A stretch of 64,000 bases of DNA from Escherichia coli (GTDB lineage: Bacteria > Pseudomonadota > Gammaproteobacteria > Enterobacterales > Enterobacteriaceae), in assembly GCF_048403405.1 (NCBI RefSeq), contig NZ_CP183129.1. The stretch is one strand, 5' to 3'. This document shows positions 8,187 to 53,013 of this stretch, one piece after another. Each line of letters starts with the position of its first letter. The stretch's first letter is position 1. Both the position numbers and the translations under genes were made by a program. The notes beneath the pieces are model-generated. The model saw only the letters and a list, made by a program, of their open reading frames with translations, was not told the DNA's origin and ran no database searches.

Positions 8187-9871
8187 TTGAAGAAGGTTTG
8201 GCTTAACCGTTATCCCGCGGACGTTCCGACGGAGATCAACCCTGACCGTTATCAATCTCTGGTAGATATGTTTGAGCAGTCGGTCGCGCGCTATGCCGAT
8301 CAACCCGCGTTTGTGAATATGGGGGAGGTGATGACCTTCCGCAAACTGGAAGAACGCAGTCGCGCGTTTGCCGCTTATTTGCAACAAGGGTTGGGACTGA
8401 AGAAAGGCGATCGCGTTGCGTTGATGATGCCTAATTTATTGCAATATCCGGTGGCGCTGTTTGGCATTTTGCGTGCCGGGATGATCGTTGTAAACGTTAA
8501 CCCGTTGTATACCCCGCGTGAGCTTGAGCATCAGCTTAACGATAGCGGCGCATCGGCGATTGTTATCGTGTCTAACTTTGCCCACACTCTGGAAAAAGTG
8601 GTTGATAAAACCGCCGTTCAGCACGTAATTCTGACCCGTATGGGCGATCAGCTATCTACGGCAAAAGGCACGGTAGTCAATTTCGTTGTTAAATACATCA
8701 AGCGTCTGGTGCCGAAATACCATCTGCCAGATGCCATTTCATTTCGTAGCGCCCTGCACAACGGCTACCGGATGCAGTACGTCAAACCCGAACTGGTGCC
8801 GGAAGATTTAGCTTTCCTGCAATACACCGGCGGTACCACTGGTGTGGCGAAAGGCGCGATGCTGACTCACCGCAATATGCTGGCGAACCTGGAACAGGTT
8901 AACGCGACCTATGGTCCGCTGTTGCATCCGGGCAAAGAGCTGGTGGTGACGGCGCTGCCGCTGTATCACATTTTTGCCCTGACCATTAACTGCCTGCTGT
9001 TTATCGAACTGGGGGGCAGAACCTGCTTATCACTAATCCGCGCGATATTCCTGGGTTGGTAAAAGAGTTAGCGAAATATCCGTTTACCGCTATCACTGGC
9101 GTTAACACCTTGTTCAATGCGTTGCTGAACAATAAAGAGTTCCAGCAGCTGGATTTCTCCAGTCTGCATCTTTCCGCAGGCGGAGGGATGCCTGTTCAGC
9201 AAGTGGTGGCAGAACGTTGGGTGAAACTGACTGGACAGTATCTGCTGGAAGGTTATGGCCTGACCGAGTGTGCGCCGCTGGTCAGCGTTAACCCGTATGA
9301 TATTGATTATCATAGCGGTAGCATCGGTTTGCCGGTGCCATCGACGGAAGCCAAACTGGTGGATGACGACGACAACGAAGTACCACCGGGTCAACCGGGT
9401 GAGCTTTGTGTCAAAGGGCCGCAGGTGATGCTGGGTTACTGGCAGCGTCCGGATGCTACCGATGAAATCATCAAAAATGGCTGGTTACACACCGGCGACA
9501 TCGCGGTGATGGATGAAGAAGGATTCCTGCGTATTGTCGATCGCAAAAAAGACATGATTCTGGTTTCCGGTTTTAACGTCTATCCCAACGAGATTGAAGA
9601 TGTCGTCATGCAGCATCCTGGCGTACAGGAAGTCGCGGCTGTTGGCGTACCTTCCGGCTCCAGTGGTGAAGCGGTGAAAATCTTCGTAGTGAAAAAAGAT
9701 CCATCGCTTACCGAAGAGTCACTGGTGACTTTTTGCCGCCGTCAGCTCACGGGCTACAAAGTACCGAAGTTGGTGGAGTTTCGTGATGAGTTACCGAAAT
9801 CTAACGTCGGAAAAATTTTGCGACGAGAATTACGTGACGAAGCGCGCGGCAAAGTGGACAATAAAGCCTGA
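8187..9871 (+). pseudogene. fadD: long-chain fatty acid-CoA ligase, interrupted by a -1 frameshift in this sequence
   Basis: TTG at 8187 reads [14 protein letters not shown]…FIELGG then hits a stop at 9060; the next frame continues [23 protein letters not shown]… to 9871; one base missing after the G6 run at 9011-9017; the two parts total 561 codons. Confidence 0.85.
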
Positions 9872-9888
9872 GCGTTAAGTCAGTCGTC

Positions 9889-9917
9889 AGACGCCGGTTA
9901 ATCCGGCGTTTTTTTTG
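9889..9917 (+). terminator. intrinsic terminator of fadD, immediately upstream of rnd
   Basis: Stem GACGCCGG / CCGGCGT with loop TTAAT followed by T8. Confidence 0.85.
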
Positions 9918-9940
9918 ACGCCCACTAAAGAGAATACAAT

Positions 9941-11068
9941 TTGAATTACCAAATGATTACCACGGACGATGCGCTGGCTTCTTTGTGTGAAGCCGTCCGT
10001 GCCTTTCCGGCGATAGCCCTGGATACTGAATTTGTTCGTACGCGCACCTATTACCCGCAACTGGGTCTAATTCAACTTTTCGATGGCGAGCATCTGGCGC
10101 TAATTGATCCTCTCGGGATCACCGACTGGTCACCGCTGAAAGCGATCCTGCGCGATCCGTCCATCACAAAATTTCTCCATGCAGGCAGTGAAGATCTGGA
10201 AGTGTTCCTCAATGTCTTTGGCGAATTACCACAACCCCTGATTGACACGCAAATCCTTGCTGCCTTCTGCGGACGCCCGATATCATGGGGTTTCGCTTCC
10301 ATGGTGGAAGAGTATTCCGGCGTTACGCTGGACAAGAGTGAATCGCGCACCGACTGGCTGGCCAGACCGCTGACCGAACGTCAGTGTGAATACGCAGCGG
10401 CGGATGTCTGGTATCTGTTACCGATCACCGCAAAGCTTATGGTAGAAACGGAGGCCTCCGGCTGGCTACCTGCGGCGCTGGATGAATGCCGCCTGATGCA
10501 AATGCGTCGTCAGGAAGTCGTTGCACCGGAAGATGCCTGGCGTGATATCACCAATGCCTGGCAGTTACGCACACGCCAACTGGCCTGTCTGCAACTGTTA
10601 GCCGACTGGCGACTGCGCAAGGCGCGGGAGCGCGATCTGGCGGTGAACTTTGTCGTGCGCGAAGAGCATTTGTGGTCGGTAGCGCGTTATATGCCGGGAA
10701 GTTTAGGCGAACTGGACAGCCTGGGCTTATCCGGTAGCGAAATCCGCTTTCACGGTAAAACGCTGCTGGCGCTGGTGGAAAAAGCGCAGACATTGCCGGA
10801 AGAGGCCTTACCGCAGCCGATGCTTAACCTGATGGACATGCCGGGTTATCGTAAAGCGTTTAAAGCGATTAAGTCGCTGATTACTGACGTGAGCGAAACG
10901 CACAAGATCAGCGCCGAATTGCTGGCATCGCGTCGGCAAATCAACCAACTGCTGAACTGGCACTGGAAACTGAAACCGCAGAACAATTTGCCGGAGCTGA
11001 TTTCCGGCTGGCGTGGTGAGCTGATGGCGGAAGCATTACACAATTTATTGCAGGAATATCCGCAGTAA
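9941..11068 (+). CDS. rnd: ribonuclease D
   Basis: 375-aa ORF beginning at TTG 9941 (MNYQMITTDDALASL…); DEDD 3'-5' exonuclease and HRDC domains. Confidence 0.93.
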   Translation: MNYQMITTDDALASLCEAVRAFPAIALDTEFVRTRTYYPQLGLIQLFDGEHLALIDPLGITDWSPLKAILRDPSITKFLHAGSEDLEVFLNVFGELPQPLIDTQILAAFCGRPISWGFASMVEEYSGVTLDKSESRTDWLARPLTERQCEYAAADVWYLLPITAKLMVETEASGWLPAALDECRLMQMRRQEVVAPEDAWRDITNAWQLRTRQLACLQLLADWRLRKARERDLAVNFVVREEHLWSVARYMPGSLGELDSLGLSGSEIRFHGKTLLALVEKAQTLPEEALPQPMLNLMDMPGYRKAFKAIKSLITDVSETHKISAELLASRRQINQLLNWHWKLKPQNNLPELISGWRGELMAEALHNLLQEYPQ

Positions 11069-34201: not shown

Positions 34202-34232
34202 AAAAAAAAGAGCGACCGAAGTCGCTCTTTTT
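34202..34232 (-). terminator. intrinsic terminator of gapA
   Basis: Stem GAGCGAC / GTCGCTC with loop CGAA flanked by A8 and T5. Confidence 0.85.
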
Positions 34233-37790: not shown

Positions 37791-39170
37791 ATGGAACAGA
37801 TAACAAAACCGCATTGTGGTGCACGGCTGGATCGCTTACCGGATTGCCGCTGGCATTCGTCAATGTTTGCCATCGTCTCGTTTGGCTTGCTTGTCTGCTG
37901 GAGTAATGCCGTTGGTGGCTTGATCCTCGCGCAGCTGAAAGAGTTGGGCTGGACAGATAATTCCACCACTGCCACATTCTCAGCAATCACGACCGCCGGA
38001 ATGTTTCTCGGTGCGCTGGTTGGCGGCATCATCGGTGACAAAACCGGTCGCAGAAATGCGTTCATCCTCTATGAGGCCATTCATATTGCCTCGATGGTGG
38101 TCGGTGCTTTTTCACCGAATATGGATTTCCTTATTGCCTGCCGTTTTGTGATGGGCGTTGGGCTGGGAGCTTTACTGGTGACGCTGTTTGCTGGTTTCAC
38201 CGAATATATGCCCGGTAGAAATCGCGGAACGTGGTCCAGTCGGGTTTCTTTTATTGGCAACTGGTCATATCCGCTCTGTTCATTGATTGCGATGGGACTC
38301 ACGCCGCTGATTAGTGCAGAGTGGAACTGGCGAGTACAACTGCTTATCCCTGCAATATTGTCGCTTATCGCTACGGCGCTGGCCTGGCGCTACTTTCCTG
38401 AATCCCCGCGCTGGCTGGAATCGCGCGGACGGTATCAGGAAGCCGAGAAAGTCATGCGGAGTATAGAAGAAGGCGTCATACGCCAGACGGGAAAACCTTT
38501 GCCGCCCGTGGTTATTGCTGATGACGGTAAAGCGCCACAAGCGGTGCCGTATTCAGCCTTAATGACAGGAGTATTACTGAAACGCGTGATATTAGGCTCT
38601 TGTGTGCTGATTGCCATGAACGTTGTGCAGTACACACTAATTAACTGGTTGCCAACAATATTCATGACCCAGGGGATTAATTTAAAAGACTCGATTGTTT
38701 TAAATACCATGAGTATGTTTGGCGCGCCATTTGGTATTTTTATTGCTATGCTGGTGATGGATAAAATTCCGCGTAAAACAATGGGTGTGGGGCTATTAAT
38801 CCTGATTGCGGTGCTCGGATATATCTATTCACTGCAAACCAGTATGTTGCTCATAACGTTGATTGGTTTCTTCCTGATTACTTTCGTCTATATGTACGTT
38901 TGCTATGCCTCGGCAGTGTATGTCCCTGAGATCTGGCCGACAGAGGCCAAATTACGTGGCTCCGGTCTGGCGAATGCAGTAGGGCGAATCAGTGGTATTG
39001 CCGCACCTTATGCCGTTGCAGTGCTGCTCAGTAGTTATGGCGTAACGGGAGTCTTTATTCTTCTGGGGGCGGTTTCAATTATTGTCGCAATTGCTATCGC
39101 CACCATTGGAATTGAAACCAAAGGTGTCTCCGTTGAAAGTTTAAGTATTGATGCAGTAGTCAATAAATAA
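37791..39170 (+). CDS. ydjK: MFS sugar-acid type transporter
   Basis: 459-aa ORF with 12 TM helices. Confidence 0.9.
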   Translation: MEQITKPHCGARLDRLPDCRWHSSMFAIVSFGLLVCWSNAVGGLILAQLKELGWTDNSTTATFSAITTAGMFLGALVGGIIGDKTGRRNAFILYEAIHIASMVVGAFSPNMDFLIACRFVMGVGLGALLVTLFAGFTEYMPGRNRGTWSSRVSFIGNWSYPLCSLIAMGLTPLISAEWNWRVQLLIPAILSLIATALAWRYFPESPRWLESRGRYQEAEKVMRSIEEGVIRQTGKPLPPVVIADDGKAPQAVPYSALMTGVLLKRVILGSCVLIAMNVVQYTLINWLPTIFMTQGINLKDSIVLNTMSMFGAPFGIFIAMLVMDKIPRKTMGVGLLILIAVLGYIYSLQTSMLLITLIGFFLITFVYMYVCYASAVYVPEIWPTEAKLRGSGLANAVGRISGIAAPYAVAVLLSSYGVTGVFILLGAVSIIVAIAIATIGIETKGVSVESLSIDAVVNK

Positions 39171-39186
39171 TACTGGTGGATTCAAA

Positions 39187-40230
39187 ATGAAAAATTCAAA
39201 AGCAATATTGCAGGTGCCGGGCACAATGAAAATTATTTCAGCAGAAATACCTGTGCCTAAAGAAGATGAAGTTTTGATTAAAGTGGAATATGTCGGTATT
39301 TGTGGTTCAGATGTACATGGTTTTGAATCAGGCCCGTTTATTCCGCCTAAAGACCCAAATCAAGAAATTGGCTTGGGTCATGAATGCGCCGGGACGGTTG
39401 TGGCTGTGGGAAGCCGTGTGCGCAAATTTAAAGCGGGGGATCGGGTAAATATCGAACCTGGCGTTCCTTGCGGTCACTGTCGTTACTGTCTGGAAGGCAA
39501 ATATAACATCTGCCCGGACGTTGATTTTATGGCGACACAACCTAACTACCGCGGCGCATTAACGCACTATCTGTGTCATCCGGAGAGCTTTACTTACAAA
39601 CTGCCCGACAATATGGACATGATGGAAGGGGCGCTGGTGGAGCCTGCTGCAGTCGGGATGCATGCCGCGATGCTGGCAGATGTTAAACCGGGTAAGAAGA
39701 TAATTATTCTGGGAGCGGGTTGTATTGGTTTGATGACGTTGCAAGCGTGCAAATGCCTGGGAGCTACGGATATTGCCGTCGTTGATGTACTGGATAAACG
39801 TCTGACAATGGCGGAACAGCTCGGCGCGACAGTGGTTATTAACGGTGCAAAAGAAGACACTATTGCACGCTGTCAGCAATTTACCGAAGAAATGGGCGCA
39901 GATATTGTTTTCGAAACAGCGGGTTCTGCGGTCACCGTTAAACAGGCACCTTATCTGGTAATGCGCGGCGGTAAAATTATGATTGTTGGTACTGTACCGG
40001 GCGATTCGGCAATCAATTTCCTCAAAATCAATCGCGAAGTCACTATTCAGACAGTATTCCGCTATGCCAATCGTTATCCGGTCACGATTGAAGCTATTTC
40101 CTCAGGGCGATTCGATGTGAAATCGATGGTGACACATATTTACGATTATCAGGATGTACAACAGGCATTTGAAGAGTCGGTTAACAACAAACGCGACATT
40201 ATTAAAGGCGTTATTAAAATTAGCGATTAA
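39187..40230 (+). CDS. ydjJ: zinc-dependent polyol dehydrogenase (MDR family)
   Basis: 347-aa ORF; GHECAGTVVAVG and CGHCRYC zinc motifs; Rossmann GAGCIG. Confidence 0.9.
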   Translation: MKNSKAILQVPGTMKIISAEIPVPKEDEVLIKVEYVGICGSDVHGFESGPFIPPKDPNQEIGLGHECAGTVVAVGSRVRKFKAGDRVNIEPGVPCGHCRYCLEGKYNICPDVDFMATQPNYRGALTHYLCHPESFTYKLPDNMDMMEGALVEPAAVGMHAAMLADVKPGKKIIILGAGCIGLMTLQACKCLGATDIAVVDVLDKRLTMAEQLGATVVINGAKEDTIARCQQFTEEMGADIVFETAGSAVTVKQAPYLVMRGGKIMIVGTVPGDSAINFLKINREVTIQTVFRYANRYPVTIEAISSGRFDVKSMVTHIYDYQDVQQAFEESVNNKRDIIKGVIKISD

Positions 40231-40250
40231 TTAATACGGGAGAACAGAAT

Positions 40251-41087
40251 ATGCTCGCAGATATCAGATATTGGGAAAACGATGCCACAAATAAACATTA
40301 TGCAATTGCCCATTTTAACGTATGGAATGCAGAAATGTTGATGGGCGTTATCGACGCAGCCGAAGAAGCGAAATCACCGGTTATTATTTCTTTTGGTACA
40401 GGTTTTGTCGGGAACACCTCATTTGAAGATTTCTCTCACATGATGGTATCAATGGCAAAAAAAGCAACGGTGCCGGTAATAACTCATTGGGATCATGGTC
40501 GGAGTATGGAAATTATTCATAACGCCTGGACTCATGGTATGAATTCATTAATGCGTGATGCTTCCGCATTTGATTTCGAAGAAAATATTCGTTTAACCAA
40601 AGAGGCTGTTGATTTCTTCCATCCGCTGGGTATTCCGGTAGAGGCAGAATTAGGGCATGTCGGTAATGAAACCGTTTATGAAGAAGCGCTGGCGGGCTAT
40701 CACTATACCGATCCTGACCAGGCGGCTGAATTTGTTGAACGTACGGGCTGTGACTCATTGGCTGTCGCCATCGGCAACCAACATGGGGTTTATACGTCAG
40801 AGCCACAATTGAATTTTGAGGTCGTCAAACGCGTACGCGATGCCGTTTCTGTTCCGCTGGTTTTGCACGGCGCATCGGGGATCAGTGATACCGACATTAA
40901 AACTGCAATTTCGTTGGGTATCGCGAAAATCAACATTCATACGGAGCTCTGTCAGGCCGCAATGGTAGCAGTGAAAGAAAACCAGGATCAGCCTTTCCTG
41001 CATTTAGAACGTGAAGTACGTAAAGCTGTAAAAGAACGGGCATTGGAAAAAATTAAACTGTTCGGTTCTGATGGCAAAGCGGAATAA
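40251..41087 (+). CDS. ydjI: class II (metal-dependent) ketose-bisphosphate aldolase
   Basis: 278-aa ORF, FbaA/KbaY-like (…HWDHGRSM…, …LHGASGISD…). Confidence 0.9.
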   Translation: MLADIRYWENDATNKHYAIAHFNVWNAEMLMGVIDAAEEAKSPVIISFGTGFVGNTSFEDFSHMMVSMAKKATVPVITHWDHGRSMEIIHNAWTHGMNSLMRDASAFDFEENIRLTKEAVDFFHPLGIPVEAELGHVGNETVYEEALAGYHYTDPDQAAEFVERTGCDSLAVAIGNQHGVYTSEPQLNFEVVKRVRDAVSVPLVLHGASGISDTDIKTAISLGIAKINIHTELCQAAMVAVKENQDQPFLHLEREVRKAVKERALEKIKLFGSDGKAE

Positions 41088-41091
41088 TGAT

Positions 41092-42039
41092 ATGGATAAT
41101 CTCGACGTTATTTGTATAGGTGCCGCTATTGTTGATATTCCATTGCAACCGGTCAGTAAAAATATCTTTGATGTGGATTCTTATCCTCTTGAAAGAATCG
41201 CAATGACCACCGGGGGTGATGCAATAAATGAAGCAACAATTATTTCTCGTCTGGGCCATCGCACAGCATTAATGAGTCGTATTGGTAAAGATGCCGCCGG
41301 GCAATTTATTCTCGACCATTGCCGCAAAGAGAATATTGATATTCAAAGCCTGAAGCAGGACGTCAGCATAGATACCTCAATTAACGTTGGACTGGTGACG
41401 GAGGATGGCGAGCGGACGTTTGTCACAAACTGTAACGGCAGTCTGTGGAAATTGAATATTGACGATGTTGATTTTTCGCGGTTTTCTCAGGCGAAATTAT
41501 TATCTCTGGCCAGTATTTTCAACAGTCCTCTATTGGATGGTAAAGCGCTAACAGAAATTTTTACGCAAGCTAAAGCCCGGCAGATGATTATCTGTGCCGA
41601 TATGATCAAACCGCGGTTGAATGAAACGCTGGATGATATTTGCGAAGCATTGAGTTATGTCGATTATCTGTTTCCTAATTATGCCGAGGCAAAATTACTC
41701 ACCGGGAAAGAGACACTGGAGGAAATTGCTGACTGCTTTCTTGCGTGCGGCGTAAAAACGGTGGTGATTAAAACGGGTAAAGACGGCTGCTTTATCAAGC
41801 GTGGTGACATGACGATGAAGGTGCCGGCGGTCGCAGGAATAACCGCCATCGACACCATTGGCGCGGGCGATAACTTTGCTTCAGGTTTTATTGCGGCACT
41901 GTTAGAAGGCAAAAATCTGCGTGAATGCGCACGCTTTGCCAATGCAACGGCGGCTATCTCGGTTCTAAGCGTCGGTGCCTCCACCGGCGTAAAAAACAGA
42001 AAGCTGGTCGAACAATTGCTGGAAGAATACGAAGGATAA
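41092..42039 (+). CDS. ydjH: PfkB-family sugar kinase
   Basis: Start taken at MDNLDVICIGAAIVD… (315 aa); PfkB signature GAGDNFASGF. Confidence 0.88.
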   Translation: MDNLDVICIGAAIVDIPLQPVSKNIFDVDSYPLERIAMTTGGDAINEATIISRLGHRTALMSRIGKDAAGQFILDHCRKENIDIQSLKQDVSIDTSINVGLVTEDGERTFVTNCNGSLWKLNIDDVDFSRFSQAKLLSLASIFNSPLLDGKALTEIFTQAKARQMIICADMIKPRLNETLDDICEALSYVDYLFPNYAEAKLLTGKETLEEIADCFLACGVKTVVIKTGKDGCFIKRGDMTMKVPAVAGITAIDTIGAGDNFASGFIAALLEGKNLRECARFANATAAISVLSVGASTGVKNRKLVEQLLEEYEG

Positions 42040-42048
42040 TGAAGGCAA

Positions 42049-43029
42049 ATGAAAAAGATACCTTTAGGCACAACGGATATTACGCTTTCGCGAATGGGGT
42101 TGGGGACATGGGCCATTGGCGGCGGTCCTGCATGGAATGGCGATCTCGATCGACAAATATGTATTGATACGATTCTTGAAGCCCATCGTTGCGGCATTAA
42201 CCTGATTGATACTGCGCCAGGATATAACTTTGGCAATAGTGAAGTTATCGTCGGTCAGGCGTTAAAAAAACTGCCCCGTGAACAGGTTGTAGTAGAAACC
42301 AAATGCGGCATTGTCTGGGAACGAAAAGGGAGTTTATTCAACAAAGTTGGCGATCGGCAGTTGTATAAAAACCTTTCCCCGGAATCTATCCGCAAAGAGG
42401 TAGAAGCCAGCTTGCAACGTCTGGGTATTGATTACATCGATATCTACATGACGCACTGGCAGTCGGTGCCGCCATTTTTTACGCCGATCGCTGAAACTGT
42501 CGCAGTGCTCAATGAGTTAAAGGACGAAGGGAAAATTCGCGCTATAGGCGCTGCTAACGTCGATGCTGACCATATCCGCGAGTATCTGCAATATGGTGAA
42601 CTGGATATTATTCAGGCGAAATACAGTATCCTCGACCGGGCAATGGAAAGCGAACTGCTGCCGCTATGTCGTGATAATGGCATTGTGGTACAGGTTTATT
42701 CGCCGTTAGAGCAGGGATTGTTGACCGGTACCATCACTCGTGATTACGTTCCGGGCGGCGCTCGGGCAAATAAAGTCTGGTTCCAGCGTGAAAACATGCT
42801 GAAAGTGATTGATATGCTTGAACAGTGGCAGCCACTCTGTGCTCGTTATCAGTGCACAATTCCCACTCTGGCACTGGCGTGGATATTAAAACAGAGTGAT
42901 TTAATCTCCATTCTTAGTGGGGCTACTGCACCGGAACAGGTACGCGAAAATGTCGCGGCATTGAATATCAACTTATCGGATGCAGACGCAACATTGATGA
43001 GGGAAATGGCAGAGGCCCTGGAGCGTTAA
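42049..43029 (+). CDS. ydjG: aldo-keto reductase
   Basis: 326-aa ORF, AKR family. Confidence 0.9.
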   Translation: MKKIPLGTTDITLSRMGLGTWAIGGGPAWNGDLDRQICIDTILEAHRCGINLIDTAPGYNFGNSEVIVGQALKKLPREQVVVETKCGIVWERKGSLFNKVGDRQLYKNLSPESIRKEVEASLQRLGIDYIDIYMTHWQSVPPFFTPIAETVAVLNELKDEGKIRAIGAANVDADHIREYLQYGELDIIQAKYSILDRAMESELLPLCRDNGIVVQVYSPLEQGLLTGTITRDYVPGGARANKVWFQRENMLKVIDMLEQWQPLCARYQCTIPTLALAWILKQSDLISILSGATAPEQVRENVAALNINLSDADATLMREMAEALER

Positions 43030-43054
43030 ATACTCAACACGATTCACCTCTGTT

Positions 43055-43083
43055 TCTGTGAAAACTGTGATGAAAATCTGTGA
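43055..43083 (+). promoter_or_regulatory. three direct CTGTGA repeats upstream of ydjF (candidate autoregulatory operator)
   Basis: CTGTGA at 43056, 43065 and 43078; shares the ATCTGTG core with the ydjL-upstream array. Confidence 0.3.
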
Positions 43084-43165
43084 TTCAAACAGGTTATTTT
43101 GAAAGTAAACATCGGTTATGCGATAATCGCGCTAATGTGATGTAAAAAGATACAGGGGTGTAATC

Positions 43166-43923
43166 GTGGCGGCAAAAGACAGGATTCAGGCAATTAAGCA
43201 AATGGTTGCCAACGATAAAAAGGTGACAGTCTCAAATTTGAGTGGGATTTTTCAGGTAACCGAAGAAACCATTCGCCGCGATCTCGAGAAGCTGGAAGAT
43301 GAAGGCTTTTTGACCAGAACCTATGGTGGTGCTGTTTTAAATACAGCGATGTTGACGGAGAATATCCATTTTTATAAGCGCGCTTCATCGTTTTATGAAG
43401 AGAAGCAGCTTATTGCACGCAAGGCACTACCCTTTATCGACAATAAAACCACTATGGCAGCCGATTCCAGTAGTACCGTTATGGAATTGCTCAAATTGTT
43501 GCAGGACCGTAGTGACCTGACGTTGCTAACTAACTCGGCGGAAGCGATTCATGTTCTGGCTCAATCAGAAATTAAAGTCGTTTCAACGGGGGGGAACTAA
43601 ACAAAAATACACTTTCCCTGCAAGGAAGAATTACTAAAGAGATCATCAGCCGCTACCATGTCGATATCATGGTAATGAGTTGTAAAGGTCTTGATATTAA
43701 CAGCGGCGCGCTGGACTCTAACGAAGCGGAAGCTGAAATCAAAAAGACAATGATCCGTCAGGCGACAGAGGTTGCGTTATTGGTTGATCACTCTAAGTTT
43801 GATCGCAAAGCTTTTGTCCAGTTAGCTGACTTTAGTCATATTAATTACATAATAACTGATAAATCACCGGGTGCAGAGTGGATAGCATTTTGCAAAGACA
43901 ATAATATCCAGCTGGTGTGGTAA
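43166..43923 (+). pseudogene. ydjF: DeoR-family transcriptional regulator, interrupted by a frameshift in this sequence
   Basis: GTG at 43166 encodes the HTH N-terminus and stops after …VVSTGGN at 43600; the next frame continues ELNKNTLSLQGRITKEIISRYHVDIMVMSCKG… to 43923; break lies in the G7 run 43588-43594; the two parts total 252 codons. Confidence 0.85.
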
Positions 43924-44040
43924 TTTAAGCACACGTTGTCAATATTATTTGTTCCTGCGCCTGGAAAATAAAATGATGATAAAGATGCGGCAAGTGAATT
44001 TGCCGCAATTGCTACCTTTTTAGCAAATCCGAGGCACCTA

Positions 44041-45399
44041 ATGGAACAATATGATCAAATTGGCGCAAGACTGGACCGCTTGCCTTTGGCCCGGTTTCAT
44101 TATCGTATATTTGGTATTATAAGCTTTAGTCTGTTATTAACGGGTTTTTTGAGTTATTCAGGCAATGTTGTTTTAGCAAAGCTGGTAAGCAATGGATGGT
44201 CAAATAATTTCCTCAATGCCGCCTTTACCTCGGCATTAATGTTTGGTTATTTCATCGGCTCTCTTACCGGTGGGTTCATCGGTGATTATTTTGGGCGGCG
44301 CAGGGCTTTTCGCATAAATCTTCTCATCGTCGGTATTGCGGCAACAGGGGCCGCTTTTGTCCCTGATATGTACTGGCTCATCTTCTTTCGCTTCCTGATG
44401 GGCACAGGAATGGGGGCGCTGATTATGGTTGGCTATGCTTCGTTTACGGAGTTTATCCCCGCGACGGTGCGTGGAAAATGGTCCGCGCGGCTCTCATTTG
44501 TCGGTAACTGGTCGCCCATGTTGTCTGCGGCGATAGGCGTGGTGGTTATCGCTTTTTTTAGTTGGCGGATAATGTTTCTGCTGGGTGGTATTGTCATACT
44601 GTTAGCCTGGTTTCTCTCAGGTAAATACTTTATTGAGTCGCCTCGATGGTTGGCGGGGAAAGGACAAATCGCAGGTGCAGAAAGCCAACTTCGTGAAGTA
44701 GAGCAGCAAATTGAAAGAGAGAAGAGTGTTCGTTTACCCCCGCTTACTTTGAATCAGAGCAACAGCAAGGCTAACGTAATCAATGGTACTTTCTGGCTGC
44801 TGTTTAAAGGGGAAATGTTACGACGTACATTAGTCGCGATTACTGTTTTAATTGCAATGAATATTTCACTTTATACCATCACCGTATGGATACCGACCAT
44901 ATTTGTTAACTCCGGCATTGATGTCGATAAATCAATATTAATGACTGCTGTTATTATGATTGGCGCTCCGGTAGGAATATTTATTGCGGCATTAATTATT
45001 GATCATTTTCCTCGTCGATTATTTGGCTCCGCCTTACTTATTATTATTGCCGTGTTAGGCTATATCTATTCAATTCAGACTACAGAGTGGGCGATTTTAA
45101 TCTATGGCCTGGTGATGATCTTCTTTTTATACATGTATGTTTGCTTCGCGTCGGCGGTTTATATCCCGGAGCTCTGGCCAACGCATTTACGCTTGCGCGG
45201 TTCGGGTTTCGTTAATGCCGTCGGACGGATCGTCGCGGTCTTCACGCCTTATGGCGTTGCGGCACTATTAACGCATTATGGGTCAATCACGGTGTTTATG
45301 GTGCTTGGCGTGATGTTAGTGCTCTGTGCGCTGGTTCTCTCCATTTTTGGCATCGAAACGCGGAAGGTGTCGCTGGAAGAGATTTCTGAGGTGAATTAA
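44041..45399 (+). CDS. ydjE: MFS transporter
   Basis: 452-aa ORF with 12 TM helices, paralogous to ydjK. Confidence 0.9.
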   Translation: MEQYDQIGARLDRLPLARFHYRIFGIISFSLLLTGFLSYSGNVVLAKLVSNGWSNNFLNAAFTSALMFGYFIGSLTGGFIGDYFGRRRAFRINLLIVGIAATGAAFVPDMYWLIFFRFLMGTGMGALIMVGYASFTEFIPATVRGKWSARLSFVGNWSPMLSAAIGVVVIAFFSWRIMFLLGGIVILLAWFLSGKYFIESPRWLAGKGQIAGAESQLREVEQQIEREKSVRLPPLTLNQSNSKANVINGTFWLLFKGEMLRRTLVAITVLIAMNISLYTITVWIPTIFVNSGIDVDKSILMTAVIMIGAPVGIFIAALIIDHFPRRLFGSALLIIIAVLGYIYSIQTTEWAILIYGLVMIFFLYMYVCFASAVYIPELWPTHLRLRGSGFVNAVGRIVAVFTPYGVAALLTHYGSITVFMVLGVMLVLCALVLSIFGIETRKVSLEEISEVN

Positions 45400-45439
45400 A
45401 TCTTTCGTTGATGGCGTCAATTGCCAGATGTACCACTGA

Positions 45440-45474
45440 CGTGTTTTATCTGGCCTACAATGGCAGTACAGAAT
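45440..45474. repeat. REP-like palindrome between convergent ydjE and pncA
   Basis: 12-bp arms CTGGCCTACAAT / ATTGTAGGCCAG around an 11-nt loop. Confidence 0.6.
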
Positions 45475-45491
45475 TGTAGGCCAGCATAAAA

Positions 45492-46133
45492 TTACTCCTG
45501 CGTCTCTTCCCAGTCTGCCAGCGTATATAGCGTTGCCCCAGCTGCTGACATCTCCATAAACGCGTGCGCACTGTCCTGTGGCTGGATATTCACACCACGA
45601 CAACCATCGGTAATCACATTAACCTTATAACCTAACTGTAACGCGTCCAGTACGGTAAACTTCACGCAATAGTCAGTAGCCAGGCCCATAATGATCAATT
45701 CATCGATTTCATGATCGCGTAACCAGTCATCGAGCGTGGTTTTCTGCCGACGGCCGTTATCAAAAAAGGCACTGTAACTGTCAACTAAAGGATTTTCGCC
45801 TTTATGGAACACCGCTGCGATCGCTTTTTGGTTCAGTAACGGATGTAATTGTGCGCCTTCACTGTTCTGCACACAGTGATCTGGCCAGAAGGTTTGTGGC
45901 AAACCGTCGAGTTGGCCTGGCGTATAAGGCTCTACACCGTGCTGACTGGCAAAACTGCCGTGATTCGCCGGGTGCCAGTCCTGACTGGCGATAACCGCTT
46001 CACCGCGCGACTGGCACCAGTCAATCAGGCGGTTAGCGACATCCACCGTACTGTCACCTTCCGGCACGGCGAGCGCGCCACCAGCACAGAAATCATTTTG
46101 TAAATCGACCAGTAACAGGGCGCGAGGGGGCAT
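45492..46133 (-). CDS. pncA: nicotinamidase / pyrazinamidase
   Basis: Start taken at MPPRALLLVDLQNDFCAGG… (213 aa); isochorismatase-like fold. Confidence 0.9.
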   Translation of the reverse strand: MPPRALLLVDLQNDFCAGGALAVPEGDSTVDVANRLIDWCQSRGEAVIASQDWHPANHGSFASQHGVEPYTPGQLDGLPQTFWPDHCVQNSEGAQLHPLLNQKAIAAVFHKGENPLVDSYSAFFDNGRRQKTTLDDWLRDHEIDELIIMGLATDYCVKFTVLDALQLGYKVNVITDGCRGVNIQPQDSAHAFMEMSAAGATLYTLADWEETQE

Positions 46134-46143
46134 TGCAGTCTCC

Positions 46144-47160
46144 TTAATCATCCGGCGTCAGTTCGCCGCGCAGGTTTTGGCTCATGGCCTTGCGAATGGT
46201 TTCAGTATCCAGTTCCTGGCTAAGCAGGTAATGCAGTTTGGTTAGTGTGGCTTCTACAGTCATATCTGCACCGCCAATAACGCCGGCATGGGCGAGGGCG
46301 TTACCGGTGGCATAACCACCCATGTTCACTTTACCGGACATACATTGTGTCAGGTTGACCACCACAATACCGCGATCGCTGGCTTCTTGTAATTCCTGCA
46401 GGAAGGCTTTGTTTTGTGGCGCATTACCCACGCCATATGAGCGCAGAATCAATGCTTTCACCGGTTGGCGCAGAAAATTGCGCACGACGTCAGCAGAAAT
46501 CCCTGGATAAATCGTCACTACGCCAATCGGTTGTGGGGTGATTGGATGAACGATCAATTCCCCTTCACCGTGCGGGGCGGGTGGCGTATTCAAACGACGA
46601 ATATGGATACCTGCTTCCAGTAACGGAGGAAGGTTTGGAGAGGCAAACGCATCAAAACCATCGGCATGGGCTTTGGTGGTACGGTTGCCACGATAAAGTC
46701 GATTATTAAAAAAGAGAGTTACTTCGTTGATAGGATAATTCGCCGCAACGTACAACGCATTCAGCAGATTAATTTGTCCGTCAGAGCGTAACTCAGCTAG
46801 CGGGATTTGTGACCCTGTCACAATGACCGGTTTACCGAGATTCTCGAGCATGAACGACAGCGCAGAGGCGGTATACGCCATCGTGTCGGTGCCGTGCAGA
46901 ATGACAAAACCATCATAGTCGTCATAATGCGCTTTAATATCTTCAGCAATATGCTGCCAGTCTTCTGGCGTCATATCTGAAGAGTCCATCAGCGGCGTAT
47001 ATTCATGAATGGTGAAATCTGGCATCTCCGGGCGATGGAATTCCGGCATCAGCGCCAGTTGGCGCTGTAGATGACCTGACACCGGAATATAACCCTGCTC
47101 GGAACGCTGCATCCCGATGGTCCCGCCCGTGTAGGCGACGTAAATTGATTTCTTTTGCAT
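46144..47160 (-). CDS. ansA: cytoplasmic L-asparaginase 1
   Basis: Start taken at MQKKSIYVAYTGGTIGMQ… (338 aa); asparaginase threonine motif TGGTIG. Confidence 0.92.
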   Translation of the reverse strand: MQKKSIYVAYTGGTIGMQRSEQGYIPVSGHLQRQLALMPEFHRPEMPDFTIHEYTPLMDSSDMTPEDWQHIAEDIKAHYDDYDGFVILHGTDTMAYTASALSFMLENLGKPVIVTGSQIPLAELRSDGQINLLNALYVAANYPINEVTLFFNNRLYRGNRTTKAHADGFDAFASPNLPPLLEAGIHIRRLNTPPAPHGEGELIVHPITPQPIGVVTIYPGISADVVRNFLRQPVKALILRSYGVGNAPQNKAFLQELQEASDRGIVVVNLTQCMSGKVNMGGYATGNALAHAGVIGGADMTVEATLTKLHYLLSQELDTETIRKAMSQNLRGELTPDD

Positions 47161-47289
47161 GATATTGATATGAATGATATCGAAAGAGCAAAAGTATATA
47201 CGTGAGGCAGGGGGAGCGCACCTGATACTATGCGGATAAGGAAATATGGGGCGAGACAGCGGGAAGAGGATTCGTCGAGGTAAAAAAAT

Positions 47290-47312
47290 GTGGCCGACGA
47301 TCTGTCGGCCAC
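47290..47312 (-). terminator. intrinsic terminator of sppA
   Basis: Stem GTGGCCGAC / GTCGGCCAC with loop GATCT, A7 immediately upstream on the plus strand (U-tract on minus). Confidence 0.8.
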
Positions 47313-47324
47313 TCAGTACAAGAC

Positions 47325-49181
47325 TTAACGCACGTTGGCGCAGGTCAGGCAAAACGCATAACGGTTTTGTGGGTCGTTAAACGCGGCCAGCTTGTCGCTT
47401 TCACTTTTAACGGTAGAGGCTACCGAGGCCAGCGGTGCAGGTAACATGGCCTGGAACGCATCTGGCAACATTGCCCGGACAGAACCAGACATGTTGTCCA
47501 TCACTTTGTCGAAGAAGGTCGGTTCATCAACGTAGTATTCCAGATGCCACTGTTTCACTTTTGCCAGCTCTGCTGCTTTGGCGACCGCATCATCGAAATC
47601 CCCGAGACTATCGACCAGCCCGTTAGCTTTTGCATCCTGACCGGTCCAGACGTGGCCCTGGGCGATTTTATCAATCTGCTCCGGCGTCGAATGACGCGCA
47701 TCAGCAACCAGCGTGATAAAGCGTTTATAGCCATTCTCAATGCTTAACTGCATCATCTGCTGCGCTTCCGGCGGCAGTGCCCTGGTGATAGAAACATCCG
47801 CCAGCGGTGAAGTTGAGACACCATCAGTATGAACACCAATCGAATCCAGACTATTTTCTACGGTGGTGATCACGCCGAAGATACCGATAGAACCGGTCAG
47901 GGTGCTGGGGTTAGCCACAATGTAATTAGCTGGCGTGGAAATCCAGTAACCACCAGATGCTGCCATGCCACCCATCGATACAACCACAGGCTTACCCGCT
48001 GCCCGGGCTGCTGCCAGTTCAGCGCGAATCACTTCAGACGCGGTAACGCTGCCGCCTGGGCTATTAACACGCAGGACAATCGCTTTCACTTTCGGGTCAA
48101 GGCGAGCGTCGCGGATTTGTGCCGCAGTGGTATCACCGCCAACATTCCCCTGAGTTTCCTCGCCATCCATAATTGCGCCATTAGCGAAGACGACACCGAT
48201 ACTGTCACCGGTATCTGCCGGCGTTTTCAATGCGTAATCGTAATAACTGATGGCGCGATAATTTTTATCAGTTTTACTCCAGCCGAACTCTTTGGTCAGA
48301 GTTTTTTCGATTTCGGCACTCGATGCCAGTGCATCGACCAGCTTGTTTTCCAGCGCATATTTCGCGGTATCGCCACCGGTTTTGGTTAAACCCTCAAGCA
48401 CCCCTTGCGCGCCAGGGAATACCTGCTGAGCAGGGATCTGCCGGTTAGCGGCAACAGTATTCAGATAGTTTTGCCACAGCTCACCAATCCAGCGGCTGTC
48501 AGCTTCGCGGGCTGCAGGCGACATATCATCACGAATAAACGGTTCAACGGCAGATTTATACGTACCCACGCGGAACACATGGGTGGAAACTTTCAGCTTA
48601 TCCAGCAACGATTTGTAGTACAGACCGTTGGTGGCAAAGCCGTGCAGATCCACCACGCCTTGCGGTGACAGCCAAATTTTATTGGCGAAACTGGCGAGAT
48701 AATATTGCCCCTGGCTGTAGTTCTCGCCAACGGCATAAACCGGTTTCCCGCTGTCACGAAACTCTTTCAGAGCTTTGCCGATGTACTGCATAGACGGCTG
48801 GTCGCCACCTGCGAAGTTTTTCAGATCCATCACGATACCGGTGATATTGCGGTCATCCTTCGCCTGGCGAATGGTATTGACGATATCAAACAGTGAGTTT
48901 TCCTGCAGACGATCGGAACTGGCACCAAGCAGTTGGCGGCTTAATTTACTAAACCGCTGAGAACTGTCGGGTTTATCGACGATCACACCAGAAATGTCCA
49001 GCAGCAGTGCGCCACGACTGGCCGTTTCTTTCGAATCACCACCACTGACCTGCATCCAAATCCCCACACCAACCAGTACGAGAAAAATAAAGAACAGGTT
49101 AAGTACCATTTCACGGACGAAATTCAGCAGACGCCACGTCCATTTAAAAAATCCGGCAATAAATCGCCAAAGGGTTCGCAT
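47325..49181 (-). CDS. sppA: signal peptide peptidase A (protease IV)
   Basis: Start taken at [14 protein letters not shown]… (618 aa); tandem ClpP/crotonase-like peptidase S49 domains. Confidence 0.92.
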
Positions 49182-49341
49182 GTATTCTCCCAACTAAAGG
49201 TCACACCTGTCACAGGCGCAATAGATGTGGTTATCGTAATGACCCAACCGGCACTTGTCAGCAGGAATTGCGGACTGGGCTGTAACAAAATCCACTCTCG
49301 TGTTAATTTTGTGAATAAATATCACGACAGGAGTTAATCAA

Positions 49342-49893
49342 ATGGATGCACTCGAACTATTGATCAATCGCCGTAGCGCCTCCCGCCTGGCTGAACCTGC
49401 GCCAACGGGTGAACAACTGCAAAACATCCTGCGTGCGGGTATGCGTGCGCCGGACCATAAGTCCATGCAACCGTGGCATTTTTTTGTGATTGAAGGGGAA
49501 GGGCGCGAGCGTTTCAGCGCCGTTCTGGAGCAGGGGGCGATTGCTGGCGGTAGTGATGACAAAGCCATCGACAAAGCCCGTAATGCGCCGTACCGCGCAC
49601 CGCTCATCATAACGGTGGTGGCAAAATGCGAAGAAAATCATAAAGTCCCGCGCTGGGAACAGGAAATGTCTGCGGGATGCGCGGTCATGGCGATGCAAAT
49701 GGCAGCAGTTGCCCAGGGGTTTGGCGGCATCTGGCGCAGTGGCGCATTAACTGAAAGTCCGGTAGTGCGTGAAGCATTCGGTTGCCGTGAGCAGGATAAA
49801 ATTGTCGGTTTTCTCTACCTTGGTACGCCGCAGCTGAAAGCATCTACGTCGATTAACGTCCCGGACCCGACGCCGTTTGTCACTTATTTCTGA
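49342..49893 (+). CDS. ydjA: NAD(P)H nitroreductase
   Basis: 183-aa ORF, nitroreductase fold. Confidence 0.9.
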
Positions 49894-50009
49894 TAATTGT
49901 CGCGAAACTGTCTGGATTGTGAGCAAAGGCGCAGGAATTCAGACACTCTCACTTATCACTTCACGGAATGAGGGTTACCATACCCGGATTGCATTGACAG
50001 GAGATGTCC

Positions 50010-51053
50010 ATGAGCGAGAACTCGATTCGTTTGACCCAATACAGCCACGGAGCTGGTTGCGGCTGTAAAATTTCCCCAAAAGTGTTGGAAACCATCCTGC
50101 ACAGTGAGCAGGCGAAGTTTGTTGATCCGAATTTGCTTGTGGGTAATGAAACCCGCGACGATGCGGCGGTGTACGATCTGGGCAATGGCACCAGCGTTAT
50201 CAGTACCACCGACTTCTTTATGCCGATCGTTGATAATCCTTTCGATTTTGGCCGCATTGCGGCGACTAACGCCATCAGCGATATCTTCGCGATGGGGGGC
50301 AAACCGATTATGGCGATTGCGATCCTCGGCTGGCCGATTAACAAACTTTCCCCGGAAATTGCCCGCGAAGTAACCGAAGGTGGACGCTATGCATGCCGTC
50401 AGGCGGGTATTGCGCTGGCTGGCGGTCACTCCATCGATGCGCCGGAGCCGATTTTTGGTCTGGCGGTAACGGGGATCGTACCGACCGAGCGGGTGAAGAA
50501 AAACAGTACCGCACAAGCCGGATGCAAACTGTTCCTGACGAAACCGCTGGGGATCGGCGTTCTTACCACGGCTGAGAAAAAATCACTGCTGAAACCAGAA
50601 CATCAGGGACTGGCGACGGAAGTGATGTGCCGGATGAACATCGCAGGCGCGTCCTTTGCCAACATCGAAGGCGTAAAAGCGATGACCGACGTTACGGGCT
50701 TTGGTCTGCTGGGGCATTTAAGCGAAATGTGTCAGGGTGCTGGTGTGCAGGCGCGCGTCGACTATGAAGCGATCCCGAAACTGCCGGGGGTTGAAGAGTA
50801 CATTAAGTTGGGCGCAGTGCCTGGCGGCACCGAACGTAACTTTGCCAGCTACGGTCATCTGATGGGTGAAATGCCGCGTGAAGTGCGCGATCTGCTGTGC
50901 GATCCGCAAACTTCTGGCGGTCTGCTGCTGGCGGTCATGCCGGAAGCAGAAAATGAGGTCAAAGCTACAGCCGCCGAGTTTGGCATTGAACTGACGGCGA
51001 TTGGCGAACTGGTGCCAGCGCGCGGCGGTCGTGCCATGGTTGAGATCCGTTAA
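50010..51053 (+). CDS. selD: selenide, water dikinase (selenophosphate synthetase)
   Basis: Start taken at [23 protein letters not shown]… (347 aa); PurM-like fold. Confidence 0.92.
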
Positions 51054-51057
51054 TTCA

Positions 51058-53013
51058 ATGCGGTTGTTTATTGCCGAAAAACCGAGTCTGGCGCGCGCCA
51101 TTGCTGATGTCCTGCCCAAACCGCACCGGAAAGGCGATGGCTTTATCGAGTGCGGTAATGGTCAGGTGGTGACCTGGTGTATCGGTCACCTGCTTGAGCA
51201 GGCGCAGCCAGACGCCTACGACAGCCGCTATGCGCGCTGGAATCTTGCTGATTTGCCGATTGTCCCGGAAAAGTGGCAATTACAGCCCCGACCCTCCGTG
51301 ACCAAACAACTTAATGTCATCAAACGCTTCCTGCATGAAGCCAGCGAAATCGTTCACGCCGGTGACCCGGATCGCGAAGGGCAATTACTGGTGGATGAAG
51401 TGCTGGACTATCTGCAACTGGCACCGGAAAAGCGCCAGCAGGTGCAGCGTTGCTTGATAAACGACCTGAACCCGCAGGCGGTTGAGCGGGCGATCGACCG
51501 TCTTCGTTCCAACAGTGAGTTTGTGCCGTTGTGCGTTTCTGCACTGGCGCGAGCCCGAGCCGACTGGCTGTACGGCATCAATATGACCCGCGCTTACACC
51601 ATTCTCGGTCGCAATGCGGGTTATCAGGGCGTACTTTCCGTGGGACGCGTGCAGACGCCCGTACTCGGACTGGTGGTGCGCCGCGACGAAGAGATTGAAA
51701 ACTTCGTGGCGAAAGATTTCTTTGAAGTCAAAGCGCATATCGTGACACCTGCCGATGAGCGGTTTACCGCTATCTGGCAACCGAGCGAAGCGTGTGAACC
51801 TTATCAGGATGAAGAAGGGCGCTTGTTACATCGTCCGCTGGCGGAGCATGTGGTCAACCGCATCAGCGGCCAACCGGCTATTGTCACCAGCTATAACGAT
51901 AAACGGGAATCAGAATCCGCACCGCTGCCGTTTTCGCTTTCGGCGTTGCAGATTGAAGCGGCAAAACGCTTTGGTCTGAGTGCGCAGAACGTGCTTGATA
52001 TCTGCCAGAAGTTGTACGAAACGCACAAGCTAATCACTTATCCGCGTTCCGATTGTCGCTATCTGCCGGAAGAGCATTTTGCCGGACGCCACGCAGTGAT
52101 GAATGCCATCAGCGTTCATGCACCGGACTTGTTACCGCAGCCAGTGGTCGATCCAGATATACGCAACCGCTGCTGGGATGACAAAAAGGTCGATGCGCAC
52201 CACGCCATCATCCCGACCGCACGGAGTTCTGCGATCAACCTGACGGAGAACGAAGCGAAGGTCTATAACCTGATTGCCCGTCAGTATTTGATGCAGTTCT
52301 GCCCGGATGCGGTGTTCCGCAAGTGTGTTATCGAACTGGATATTGCCAAAGGCAAATTTGTCGCTAAAGCGCGTTTTCTTGCTGAAGCAGGCTGGCGCAC
52401 GCTGTTAGGCAGCAAAGAGCGCGATGAAGAAAACGACGGTACGCCATTGCCTGTGGTGGCGAAAGGCGATGAGTTGCTGTGTGAAAAAGGTGAAGTGGTA
52501 GAGCGGCAAACCCAGCCGCCGCGTCATTTTACCGATGCAACACTGCTTTCGGCGATGACCGGGATAGCACGTTTTGTGCAGGACAAAGATCTGAAAAAGA
52601 TCCTTCGTGCGACCGATGGTCTGGGGACAGAAGCGACTCGCGCCGGGATTATTGAACTGCTGTTCAAGCGAGGCTTCCTGACCAAAAAAGGGCGCTATAT
52701 CCACTCCACCGACGCCGGAAAAGCATTATTCCATTCGCTGCCAGAGATGGCGACGCGACCGGACATGACCGCGCACTGGGAATCGGTGCTGACGCAAATC
52801 AGCGAAAAGCAGTGTCGCTACCAGGACTTTATGCAACCGCTGGTGGGGACATTGTACCAGTTGATTGATCAGGCAAAGCGCACGTCGGTAAGGCAGTTTC
52901 GGGGAATAATGGCTCCCGGCGGTGGAGAAGGGAAGAAAAAGGATTCGCCACGCAAGAGAGCGCCGAAAAAAAGCCCGCCATCAGAAGAGGCGGGCAATGG
53001 AGTGATAACATAA
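51058..53013 (+). CDS. topB: DNA topoisomerase III
   Basis: Start taken at ATG 51058 ([19 protein letters not shown]…), 4 bp after the selD stop; Toprim and type IA topoisomerase domains; lysine-rich C-terminal tail. Confidence 0.92.

Follow-up and report, generated by a model that had tools for sequence, protein, structure and literature searches.

The junction between fadD and rnd in this Escherichia coli DNA raises two questions: what a hairpin followed by eight T residues does between the two genes, and where translation of the downstream gene begins. We analysed this junction in the window, that is, the whole 64-kb stretch of DNA, and arrived, with a probability of roughly 0.88, at the reading that this is the classical fadD-rnd junction, in which hairpin and U8 would serve as terminator of fadD, as 3' end of the small RNA SroD and as enhancer in the rnd leader, with TTG 9941 as the start of rnd. 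The features that define the locus are as follows.

9869-9871, + strand: stop codon TGA of fadD (read from the sequence).
9917-9940, + strand: spacer of exactly 24 nt between T8 and TTG (read from the sequence).
9928-9933, + strand: weak Shine-Dalgarno (SD) sequence AAGAGA, 7 nt ahead of TTG (comparison, anti-SD pairing).
9941-9943, + strand: TTG, initiation codon of rnd, MNYQMITT... (comparison, K-12 curation, PDB 1YT3).
9953-9955, + strand: internal ATG, codon 5, probably not a start (start used by PGAP; no SD before it).
9941-11068, + strand: rnd coding sequence, RNase D, 375 aa (ORF list, alignment to PDB 1YT3).

The region from 9600 to 10200 found a match in 5425 of 5426 complete E. coli genomes, under the annotation fadD / rnd; the gene order in the window is yeaY, fadD and rnd on the + strand, with yeaX on the - strand. 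Between 9780 and 9990 the window is identical to K-12 MG1655 save for T9935 (A in K-12), which lies within the SD-to-start spacer. Identity over 9872-9971 is at least 99% in 4133 of 5422 E. coli genomes, and the T9935 substitution is thus common in the species. The rnd product aligned to chain A of PDB 1YT3 over residues 1-375 of 375, with two substitutions (E = 9e-255), and by this alignment it is RNase D, a DEDD 3'-5' exoribonuclease with HRDC domains. For comparison we used 80 rnd loci from different Enterobacteriaceae species, 79 of which include the gene start. fadD lies upstream of rnd in 78 of these 79, the spacer between the two genes measures 67-74 nt in 74 of those 78, and the C-terminal peptide of FadD (19 residues compared) is kept in 78 of 79 loci. 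The junction is a long-known, ordinary E. coli arrangement. The positions given in the earlier note for the hairpin, T8, the 24-nt gap, TTG 9941 and ATG 9953 all proved exact, and its statement that both hairpin and UUG are retained here agrees with the identity to K-12 across hairpin, T8 and SD.

The element between the two genes is composed of the following parts.

9889-9911, + strand: terminator/leader hairpin of 9 pairs (terminator scan, folding, covariation).
9889-9897, + strand: 5' arm of the hairpin, AGACGCCGG (read from the sequence).
9898-9902, + strand: loop TTAAT (read from the sequence).
9903-9911, + strand: 3' arm of the hairpin, CCGGCGTTT (read from the sequence).
9891-9897 with 9903-9909, + strand: core of the hairpin, 7 Watson-Crick pairs (read from the sequence).
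9909-9916, + strand: U8 tract (T8) (Term-seq 3' ends; published rnd enhancer).

When 9500-10200 was scanned for terminators, the hairpin with T8 was the sole site called. The 89-nt leader folds with an energy of -22.7 kcal/mol, which corresponds to z = -3.19 relative to dinucleotide-shuffled sequences. A strict search, requiring 7 or more perfect pairs with 5 or more G-C, a loop of 3-8 nt and then 7 or more T, returned three sites in the 64-kb window and none in any of 100 dinucleotide shuffles. Since strict sites are absent from all shuffles and the z-score is low, the hairpin with T8 is not a product of chance. In addition, RNA 3' ends have been mapped in K-12 by Term-seq on the minus strand at 1888017 (LB, OD 0.4), 1888020 (LB, OD 2.0) and 1888018 (M63) (Adams et al. 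2021, PMC7815308). Anchored on the rnd TTG at 1887991, the ends at 1888017, 1888018 and 1888020 correspond to 9915, 9914 and 9912 of the window, which are the seventh, sixth and fourth U of the tract. Read counts at this U-tract reach ~38,000-52,000 across the three growth conditions, the flank printed in the tables ends ...CCGGCGTTTTTTTTGACGCC, and the site is labelled there fadD (primary), sroD and 'upstream ORF -27/-29 rnd' (PMC7815308). Because the K-12 ends fall in an identical U-tract, the hairpin, as judged from K-12 data transferred to the same sequence, is a terminator or a stabiliser of RNA 3' ends in vivo, and the earlier attribution of fadD termination to hairpin plus T8 is borne out.

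The same ends are also those of a curated small RNA.

9830-9915, + strand: small RNA SroD, Rfam RF00370 (covariance model, full-length match).

RF00370 matches at 115.2 bits (gathering score 50; E = 1.8e-24) over model positions 1-86 of 86, and the match overlaps the last 42 nt of fadD, including the stop codon, and ends inside the U-tract. With the same model, 16 of 16 loci chosen from diverse Enterobacteriaceae also passed the gathering threshold. On this covariance match, 9830-9915 is a member of the SroD family, and the hairpin doubles as the 3' end of the RNA. SroD has been placed at the 3' end of fadD (PMC5874903); as relayed in a passage of the same article, it was reported in K-12 as an RNA of ~86 nt by the RNomics screen of Vogel et al. 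2003, and it has been described as 3' UTR-derived and FadR-dependent (PMC8313858). The earlier note had overlooked SroD. An Rfam match to snoR9 was set aside as noise (16 bits, E = 0.34).

We then consider how the hairpin behaves across the family. Its 7 core pairs are unbroken in all 63 distinct leaders, and two of them carry compensatory changes, from G-C to A-U in 6 leaders (Kluyvera group) and from C-G to U-A in 2 (Cedecea group). Among the 63 distinct leaders, 96.6% of cells are paired, versus 28-69% when the partner columns are slid. In three Citrobacter loci the hairpin is separated from the fadD stop by additional DNA, some 40 nt long in L010 and some 160 nt long in L012 and L022; immediately behind its fadD, L012 has another copy of the hairpin that is not followed by a T-run. 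Read from the alignment, this pattern of insertions favours a function of the hairpin that is tied to rnd as well as to fadD. An outer helix pairing CGTCA (9885-9889) with TGACG (9916-9920), with the U-tract as an internal loop, seemed to covary by eye; it is not claimed here, as permuted 5' flanks gave equal outer pairs and similar energies in most sequences, p reaching ~0.02-0.07 only in the Enterobacter and Citrobacter groups.

According to the preferred reading, the hairpin would do three jobs. Firstly, as a Rho-independent terminator, it ends fadD transcripts at the U-tract, as Term-seq shows in K-12 on identical sequence. Secondly, it would form the 3' end of the 86-nt SroD (9830-9915). 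Thirdly, on read-through transcripts, hairpin and U8 would sit in the 5' leader of rnd; such transcripts would start at a promoter in the last fadD codons, which we infer here. There the U-tract, single-stranded and adjoining the base of the hairpin, would act as a ribosome-binding enhancer, probably via protein S1, and would compensate for a poor initiation region made of a UUG start and the weak AAGAGA Shine-Dalgarno. The work of Zhang and Deutscher in 1989 is said to have placed a single rnd promoter upstream of the hairpin, in the last fadD codons; changing UUG to AUG reportedly raised rnd expression, and removal of the hairpin reportedly led to the loss of the protein but not of the mRNA.

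An alternative is that hairpin and U8 are a terminator of fadD and SroD only, have no positive role in rnd translation, and lie close to rnd just because the intergenic region is compact. Every feature of an intrinsic terminator is indeed present, and the in vivo 3' ends map there. The U-tract, moreover, is not constant: it reads T8 in 29 of 79 loci (Escherichia, Citrobacter, Kluyvera) and T6AT in 45 (Enterobacter, Klebsiella, Raoultella, Kosakonia and others), so that U8 is replaced by U6AU in most genera. This sits awkwardly with the report, relayed in PMC3575828, that eight U residues close upstream of the SD strongly enhance ribosome attachment and shorter runs do not. The terminator-only proposal has to contend, however, with published mutational and 30S-binding work on rnd mRNA, as relayed in PMC7769764, PMC3575828 and PMC5934652. 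There, citing Zhang and Deutscher, the rnd mRNA with its UUG start is said to carry a U-rich translational enhancer (PMC7769764), and U-rich regions to bind 30S subunits in vitro and to enhance rnd translation in vivo (PMC5934652); the primary sources are J Biol Chem 1989 (PMID 2681190) and PNAS 1992 (PMID 1372983). In an independent synthetic construct, U8 raised reporter activity ~3-fold (100 versus 31 Miller units), and the activity was lower when U8 was moved away from the ribosome-binding site (PMC3575828). The loci themselves speak against it in two ways: the insertions in L010, L012 and L022 lie upstream of the hairpin, so that hairpin, T8, SD and TTG stay together as a block whose spacing is preserved towards rnd and not towards fadD, and only 23-29 nt separate the T-run from the start codon. 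We consider the terminator-only alternative improbable, and retain the hairpin with U8 as both terminator and leader enhancer. The statement in the earlier note that rnd translation is known to be controlled by a hairpin and a UUG start accordingly traces back to Zhang & Deutscher 1989 and 1992, as cited in PMC7769764, PMC5934652 and PMC3575828.

The end of fadD offers a candidate origin for transcripts that reach rnd.

9834-9862, + strand: candidate rnd promoter within the last fadD codons (synonymous-site conservation, weak -35/-10 match).
9834-9839, + strand: -35-like GTGACG (sequence match).
9857-9862, + strand: -10-like GACAAT, after a 17-nt spacer (sequence match).

The predicted transcription start lies near 9869-9871, which would give a leader of ~70 nt containing the hairpin. 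In 77 distinct sequences, the synonymous third positions are invariant or nearly so at 9824-9829, 9833-9841, 9851-9853 and 9857-9862. Over the last 45 fadD codons, third-position entropy is ~1-2 bits outside the stretches CGA GAA TTN CGT GAC GAA (9824-9841) and GAC AAT (9857-9862), and the 29 codons further upstream vary freely, except for the Leu codon at 9770 (H3 0.30). Such a position fits the published description, in which the hairpin is flanked by the promoter on one side and the SD on the other. The promoter scan did not call it (its match to the consensus is 8/12). As to transcription-start data, rnd is absent from the TetRP supplements, and both rnd and fadD are absent from the SMRT-Cappable-seq supplements. 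The conserved promoter-like bases are also the unpaired 5' end and the first loop of SroD in the Rfam model, and it is an equally valid view that the conservation reflects SroD function, the SroD 5' region or a processing site. Efficient termination in Term-seq is in tension with the read-through that would be required from a promoter ~20 nt upstream of the hairpin. A bolder proposal would make hairpin and U-tract, the SroD body and the fadD-embedded rnd promoter a single co-evolving module, in which regulated read-through would tie the production of RNase D to the transcription of fadD (FadR control, stationary phase). We regard it as a long shot. If it were true, SroD would be either a terminated by-product or an active partner, and the change from U8 to U6AU in most genera would mark a reset of the enhancer or terminator balance.

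With the leader read as the enhancer-bearing 5' end of rnd, the point of initiation has to be fixed. The rnd frame is closed by an in-frame TAA at 9926-9928, four codons upstream of TTG 9941, and no ATG, GTG or TTG occurs in the rnd frame between the two. Hence, no start upstream of 9941 is possible, and the candidates are TTG 9941 and ATG 9953 only, separated by the codons AAT TAC CAA. At the aligned position of the start codon, 75 of 79 loci have TTG and the other 4 have GTG; neither ATG nor any non-start codon occurs there. The hexamer ahead of it is AAGAGA in 71 of 79 loci and departs from AAGAGA by at most one base in 78 of 79, while the SD-to-start spacing is 7 nt in 78 of 79. The best anti-SD duplex has -2.9 kcal/mol for TTG 9941 versus +0.4 (none) upstream of ATG 9953. 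The rnd gene of K-12 MG1655 is curated as 1128 nt and 375 aa from TTG, and the crystallised RNase D (PDB 1YT3) has 375 residues with the N-terminus MNYQMITT. On these comparisons rnd starts at TTG 9941, where the earlier note had also opened the frame.

It could still be argued that RNase D translation begins at ATG 9953 and that TTG 9941 is merely an in-frame leucine codon position in the leader. N-terminal sequencing in the 1989 work of Zhang and Deutscher reportedly gave UUG as the start, which we counted against this view. PGAP annotates a 1116-nt rnd from ATG 9953 in CFSAN061763 and B1.H1.18, the Klebsiella pneumoniae ortholog is also given as 1116 nt (Kim 2012), and 78 of 79 loci share ATG as codon 5. 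Against this, the ATG is without an SD, whereas the conserved AAGAGA is placed 7 nt before TTG in 78 loci; the only codons seen at position 9941 are TTG and GTG, both of them start codons, to the exclusion of all other Leu or Val codons; codons 2-4 differ between loci mostly at synonymous sites (AAT/AAC, TAC/TAT, CAA/CAG), as translated codons do; in one locus, that of Enterobacter sp. RIT418 (L050), codon 5 reads ATT and not ATG; and both the K-12 curation and PDB 1YT3 use MNYQ. ATG 9953 is thus probably not the rnd start, initiation there being very unlikely indeed, and we regard the PGAP start as a 4-codon mis-annotation, an automatic call that is not evidence. The two observations that the earlier note had named as fatal to a TTG start come down to the same facts: an in-frame upstream ATG is excluded by the TAA at 9926-9928, and a start at ATG 9953 was found only as that automatic annotation. 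An in-frame ATG 9 codons upstream, noticed in the Enterobacter group, was dropped as a conserved alternative start: it is out of frame or absent elsewhere and is TAA-closed in E. coli.

Upstream of the junction, the fadD gene of the window is interrupted.

8187-9062, + strand: 5' part of fadD, from a TTG start equivalent to that of K-12 to a premature TAA at 9060-9062 (K-12 alignment, ORF list).
9011-9016, + strand: G6 run left by a 1-T deletion, K-12 CTGGGTGGGCAG becoming CTGGGGGGCAG in the window (K-12 alignment).
9056-9871, + strand: 3' part of fadD in the original frame, to TGA 9869-9871 (ORF list).

The alignment of the window's fadD with that of K-12 contains 1647 identities in 1686 positions and one gap. 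The same deletion occurs in 1 of 5426 complete E. coli genomes, B1.H1.18, in which PGAP flags a frameshift and which belongs to a different lineage (95.8-99.8% identity to the window in 1-kb bins). The nearest relatives of the window (CFSAN061763 and others) carry an intact fadD differing only by that single-base gap, so the deletion is private within the lineage; it may be a sequencing error rather than a real mutation. The deletion lies ~880 nt and the premature stop ~830 nt upstream of the hairpin. If the frameshift is real, it would most likely affect FadD function and possibly, through polarity, the abundance of SroD, whose output from fadD transcripts could drop; rnd initiation would not be its target. 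The idea in the earlier note that the frameshift could alter ribosome traffic into the hairpin finds no support, and a resulting change of termination or rnd translation in this strain is in our view scarcely credible. In its favour, the sequence does contain the frameshift, which would halt fadD ribosomes at 9060-9062, and Rho might act on the ~810 nt of fadD RNA left untranslated and end transcription ahead of the hairpin. Against it, that stop is far upstream; a ribosome on the intact gene already stops at 9869-9871, 18-20 nt before the stem, and would not be expected to melt the hairpin in any case; any polarity effect would arise upstream of the candidate rnd promoter (9834-9862); and the deletion is, as said, private to this sequence and possibly an error.

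Little of the preferred reading is new. Experiments that took apart the UUG start of rnd, its leader hairpin and its U8 enhancer date back over 30 years, and the terminator and SroD are already found in Term-seq tables, EcoCyc gene lists and Rfam. Three points are of practical use. Firstly, the automatic PGAP annotation sets the start of rnd 4 codons downstream of its proper place, at least in CFSAN061763 and B1.H1.18. Secondly, whoever deletes or repairs fadD here alters SroD and the probable rnd promoter as well, an effect for which May & Silhavy needed controls (PMC5874903). Thirdly, the comparative set constitutes a natural mutant series for the enhancer model, with an unbroken and compensated hairpin, a fixed SD spacing, and U8 changed to U6AU in many genera.

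Compared with known systems, the element resembles a canonical Rho-independent terminator in its G+C-rich stem of 7-9 bp, its 5-nt loop, its U8 and the 3' ends within the U-tract; it differs in that the fadD-rnd hairpin also stands in the 5' leader of the next gene, where it reportedly aids translation instead of attenuating it. With the S1-dependent U-rich or A/U-rich enhancers and standby sites (manY leader, tisB) it shares a single-stranded U-rich tract shortly upstream of a weak ribosome-binding site, and both PMC7769764 and PMC5934652 name rnd mRNA among such cases; in contrast to those sites, the rnd U-tract doubles as a terminator tail, and it is we who infer a role of S1 for rnd. No difference was detected between the window and SroD as modelled in RF00370. 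The closest counterpart is the rnd leader of Zhang & Deutscher: the locus is the same and the sequence nearly identical, with the UUG start, the G+C-rich hairpin and U8 upstream of the SD, and nothing of substance sets the two apart, the one spacer substitution being T9935.

The 3' part of fadD is overlapped by the small RNA SroD, and the Rfam match makes the hairpin in the leader of rnd, the RNase D gene (9889-9911, with its T8 tract at 9909-9916), the terminator of SroD. The earlier note on this fadD-rnd hairpin did not mention SroD. The features discussed here are, in window coordinates:

8187-8189: start codon of fadD, a TTG that corresponds in position to the start in K-12; AGAGGTGA precedes it
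9830-9915, + strand: SroD sRNA (Rfam RF00370), 115 bits
15122-15138, - strand: hairpin followed by a T-run, from the strict search
34210-34227, - strand: hairpin followed by a T-run, from the strict search

The last two are the only sites in the 64-kb window, besides the fadD-rnd hairpin, at which a perfect 7-bp G+C-rich hairpin is followed by at least 7 T; presumably each serves a neighbouring gene as its terminator. A further RNA 3' end lies inside rnd: the Term-seq listing gives K-12 position 1887883 in M63 medium, which corresponds to about 10049 (+) in the window, with about 108 nt of rnd coding sequence ahead of it.

Among 77 distinct Enterobacteriaceae sequences, the third-codon synonymous sites of fadD are invariant at 9824-9841 and 9857-9862, and the codons adjoining these blocks vary freely. 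The conserved blocks fit an embedded candidate rnd promoter, with GTGACG as -35 and GACAAT as -10; alternatively, the conservation may stem from the 5'/loop sequence of SroD or from a processing site. The fadD frameshift itself is a deletion of one T at 9011-9016, turning GGGTGGG into GGGGGG; fadD is intact in the nearest relatives of the window, and among 5426 complete genomes the same deletion was found only in B1.H1.18, which belongs to an unrelated lineage.

In the Citrobacter loci L012 (2278-2440) and L022, about 160 nt of extra DNA separate fadD from the rnd leader; the insert of L010 is shorter (2397-2446). L012 carries the 20-nt hairpin sequence twice, upstream without a T-run and downstream with T8, and shares with L010 an additional inverted repeat of the type AAAGAAGGAA...TTCCTTCTTT. 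Elsewhere the U-tract reads T6AT, creating an ATG at its end. This ATG is out of the rnd frame in Klebsiella and Raoultella; in the Enterobacter group (L025-L029, L035, L036, L039, L050 and others), where 27 nt separate it from the start of rnd, it is in frame, adding nine stop-free codons. It is probably not used as the rnd start, but it could misguide gene callers.

PGAP places the rnd start at the internal ATG (9953), giving 371 aa (records NZ_CP042899.1 and NZ_CP146564.1), likely a systematic mis-annotation by four codons, whereas curated K-12 and PDB 1YT3 have the TTG start and 375 aa. Since fadD, like its neighbour rnd, starts with TTG, both adjacent genes have UUG initiation codons.
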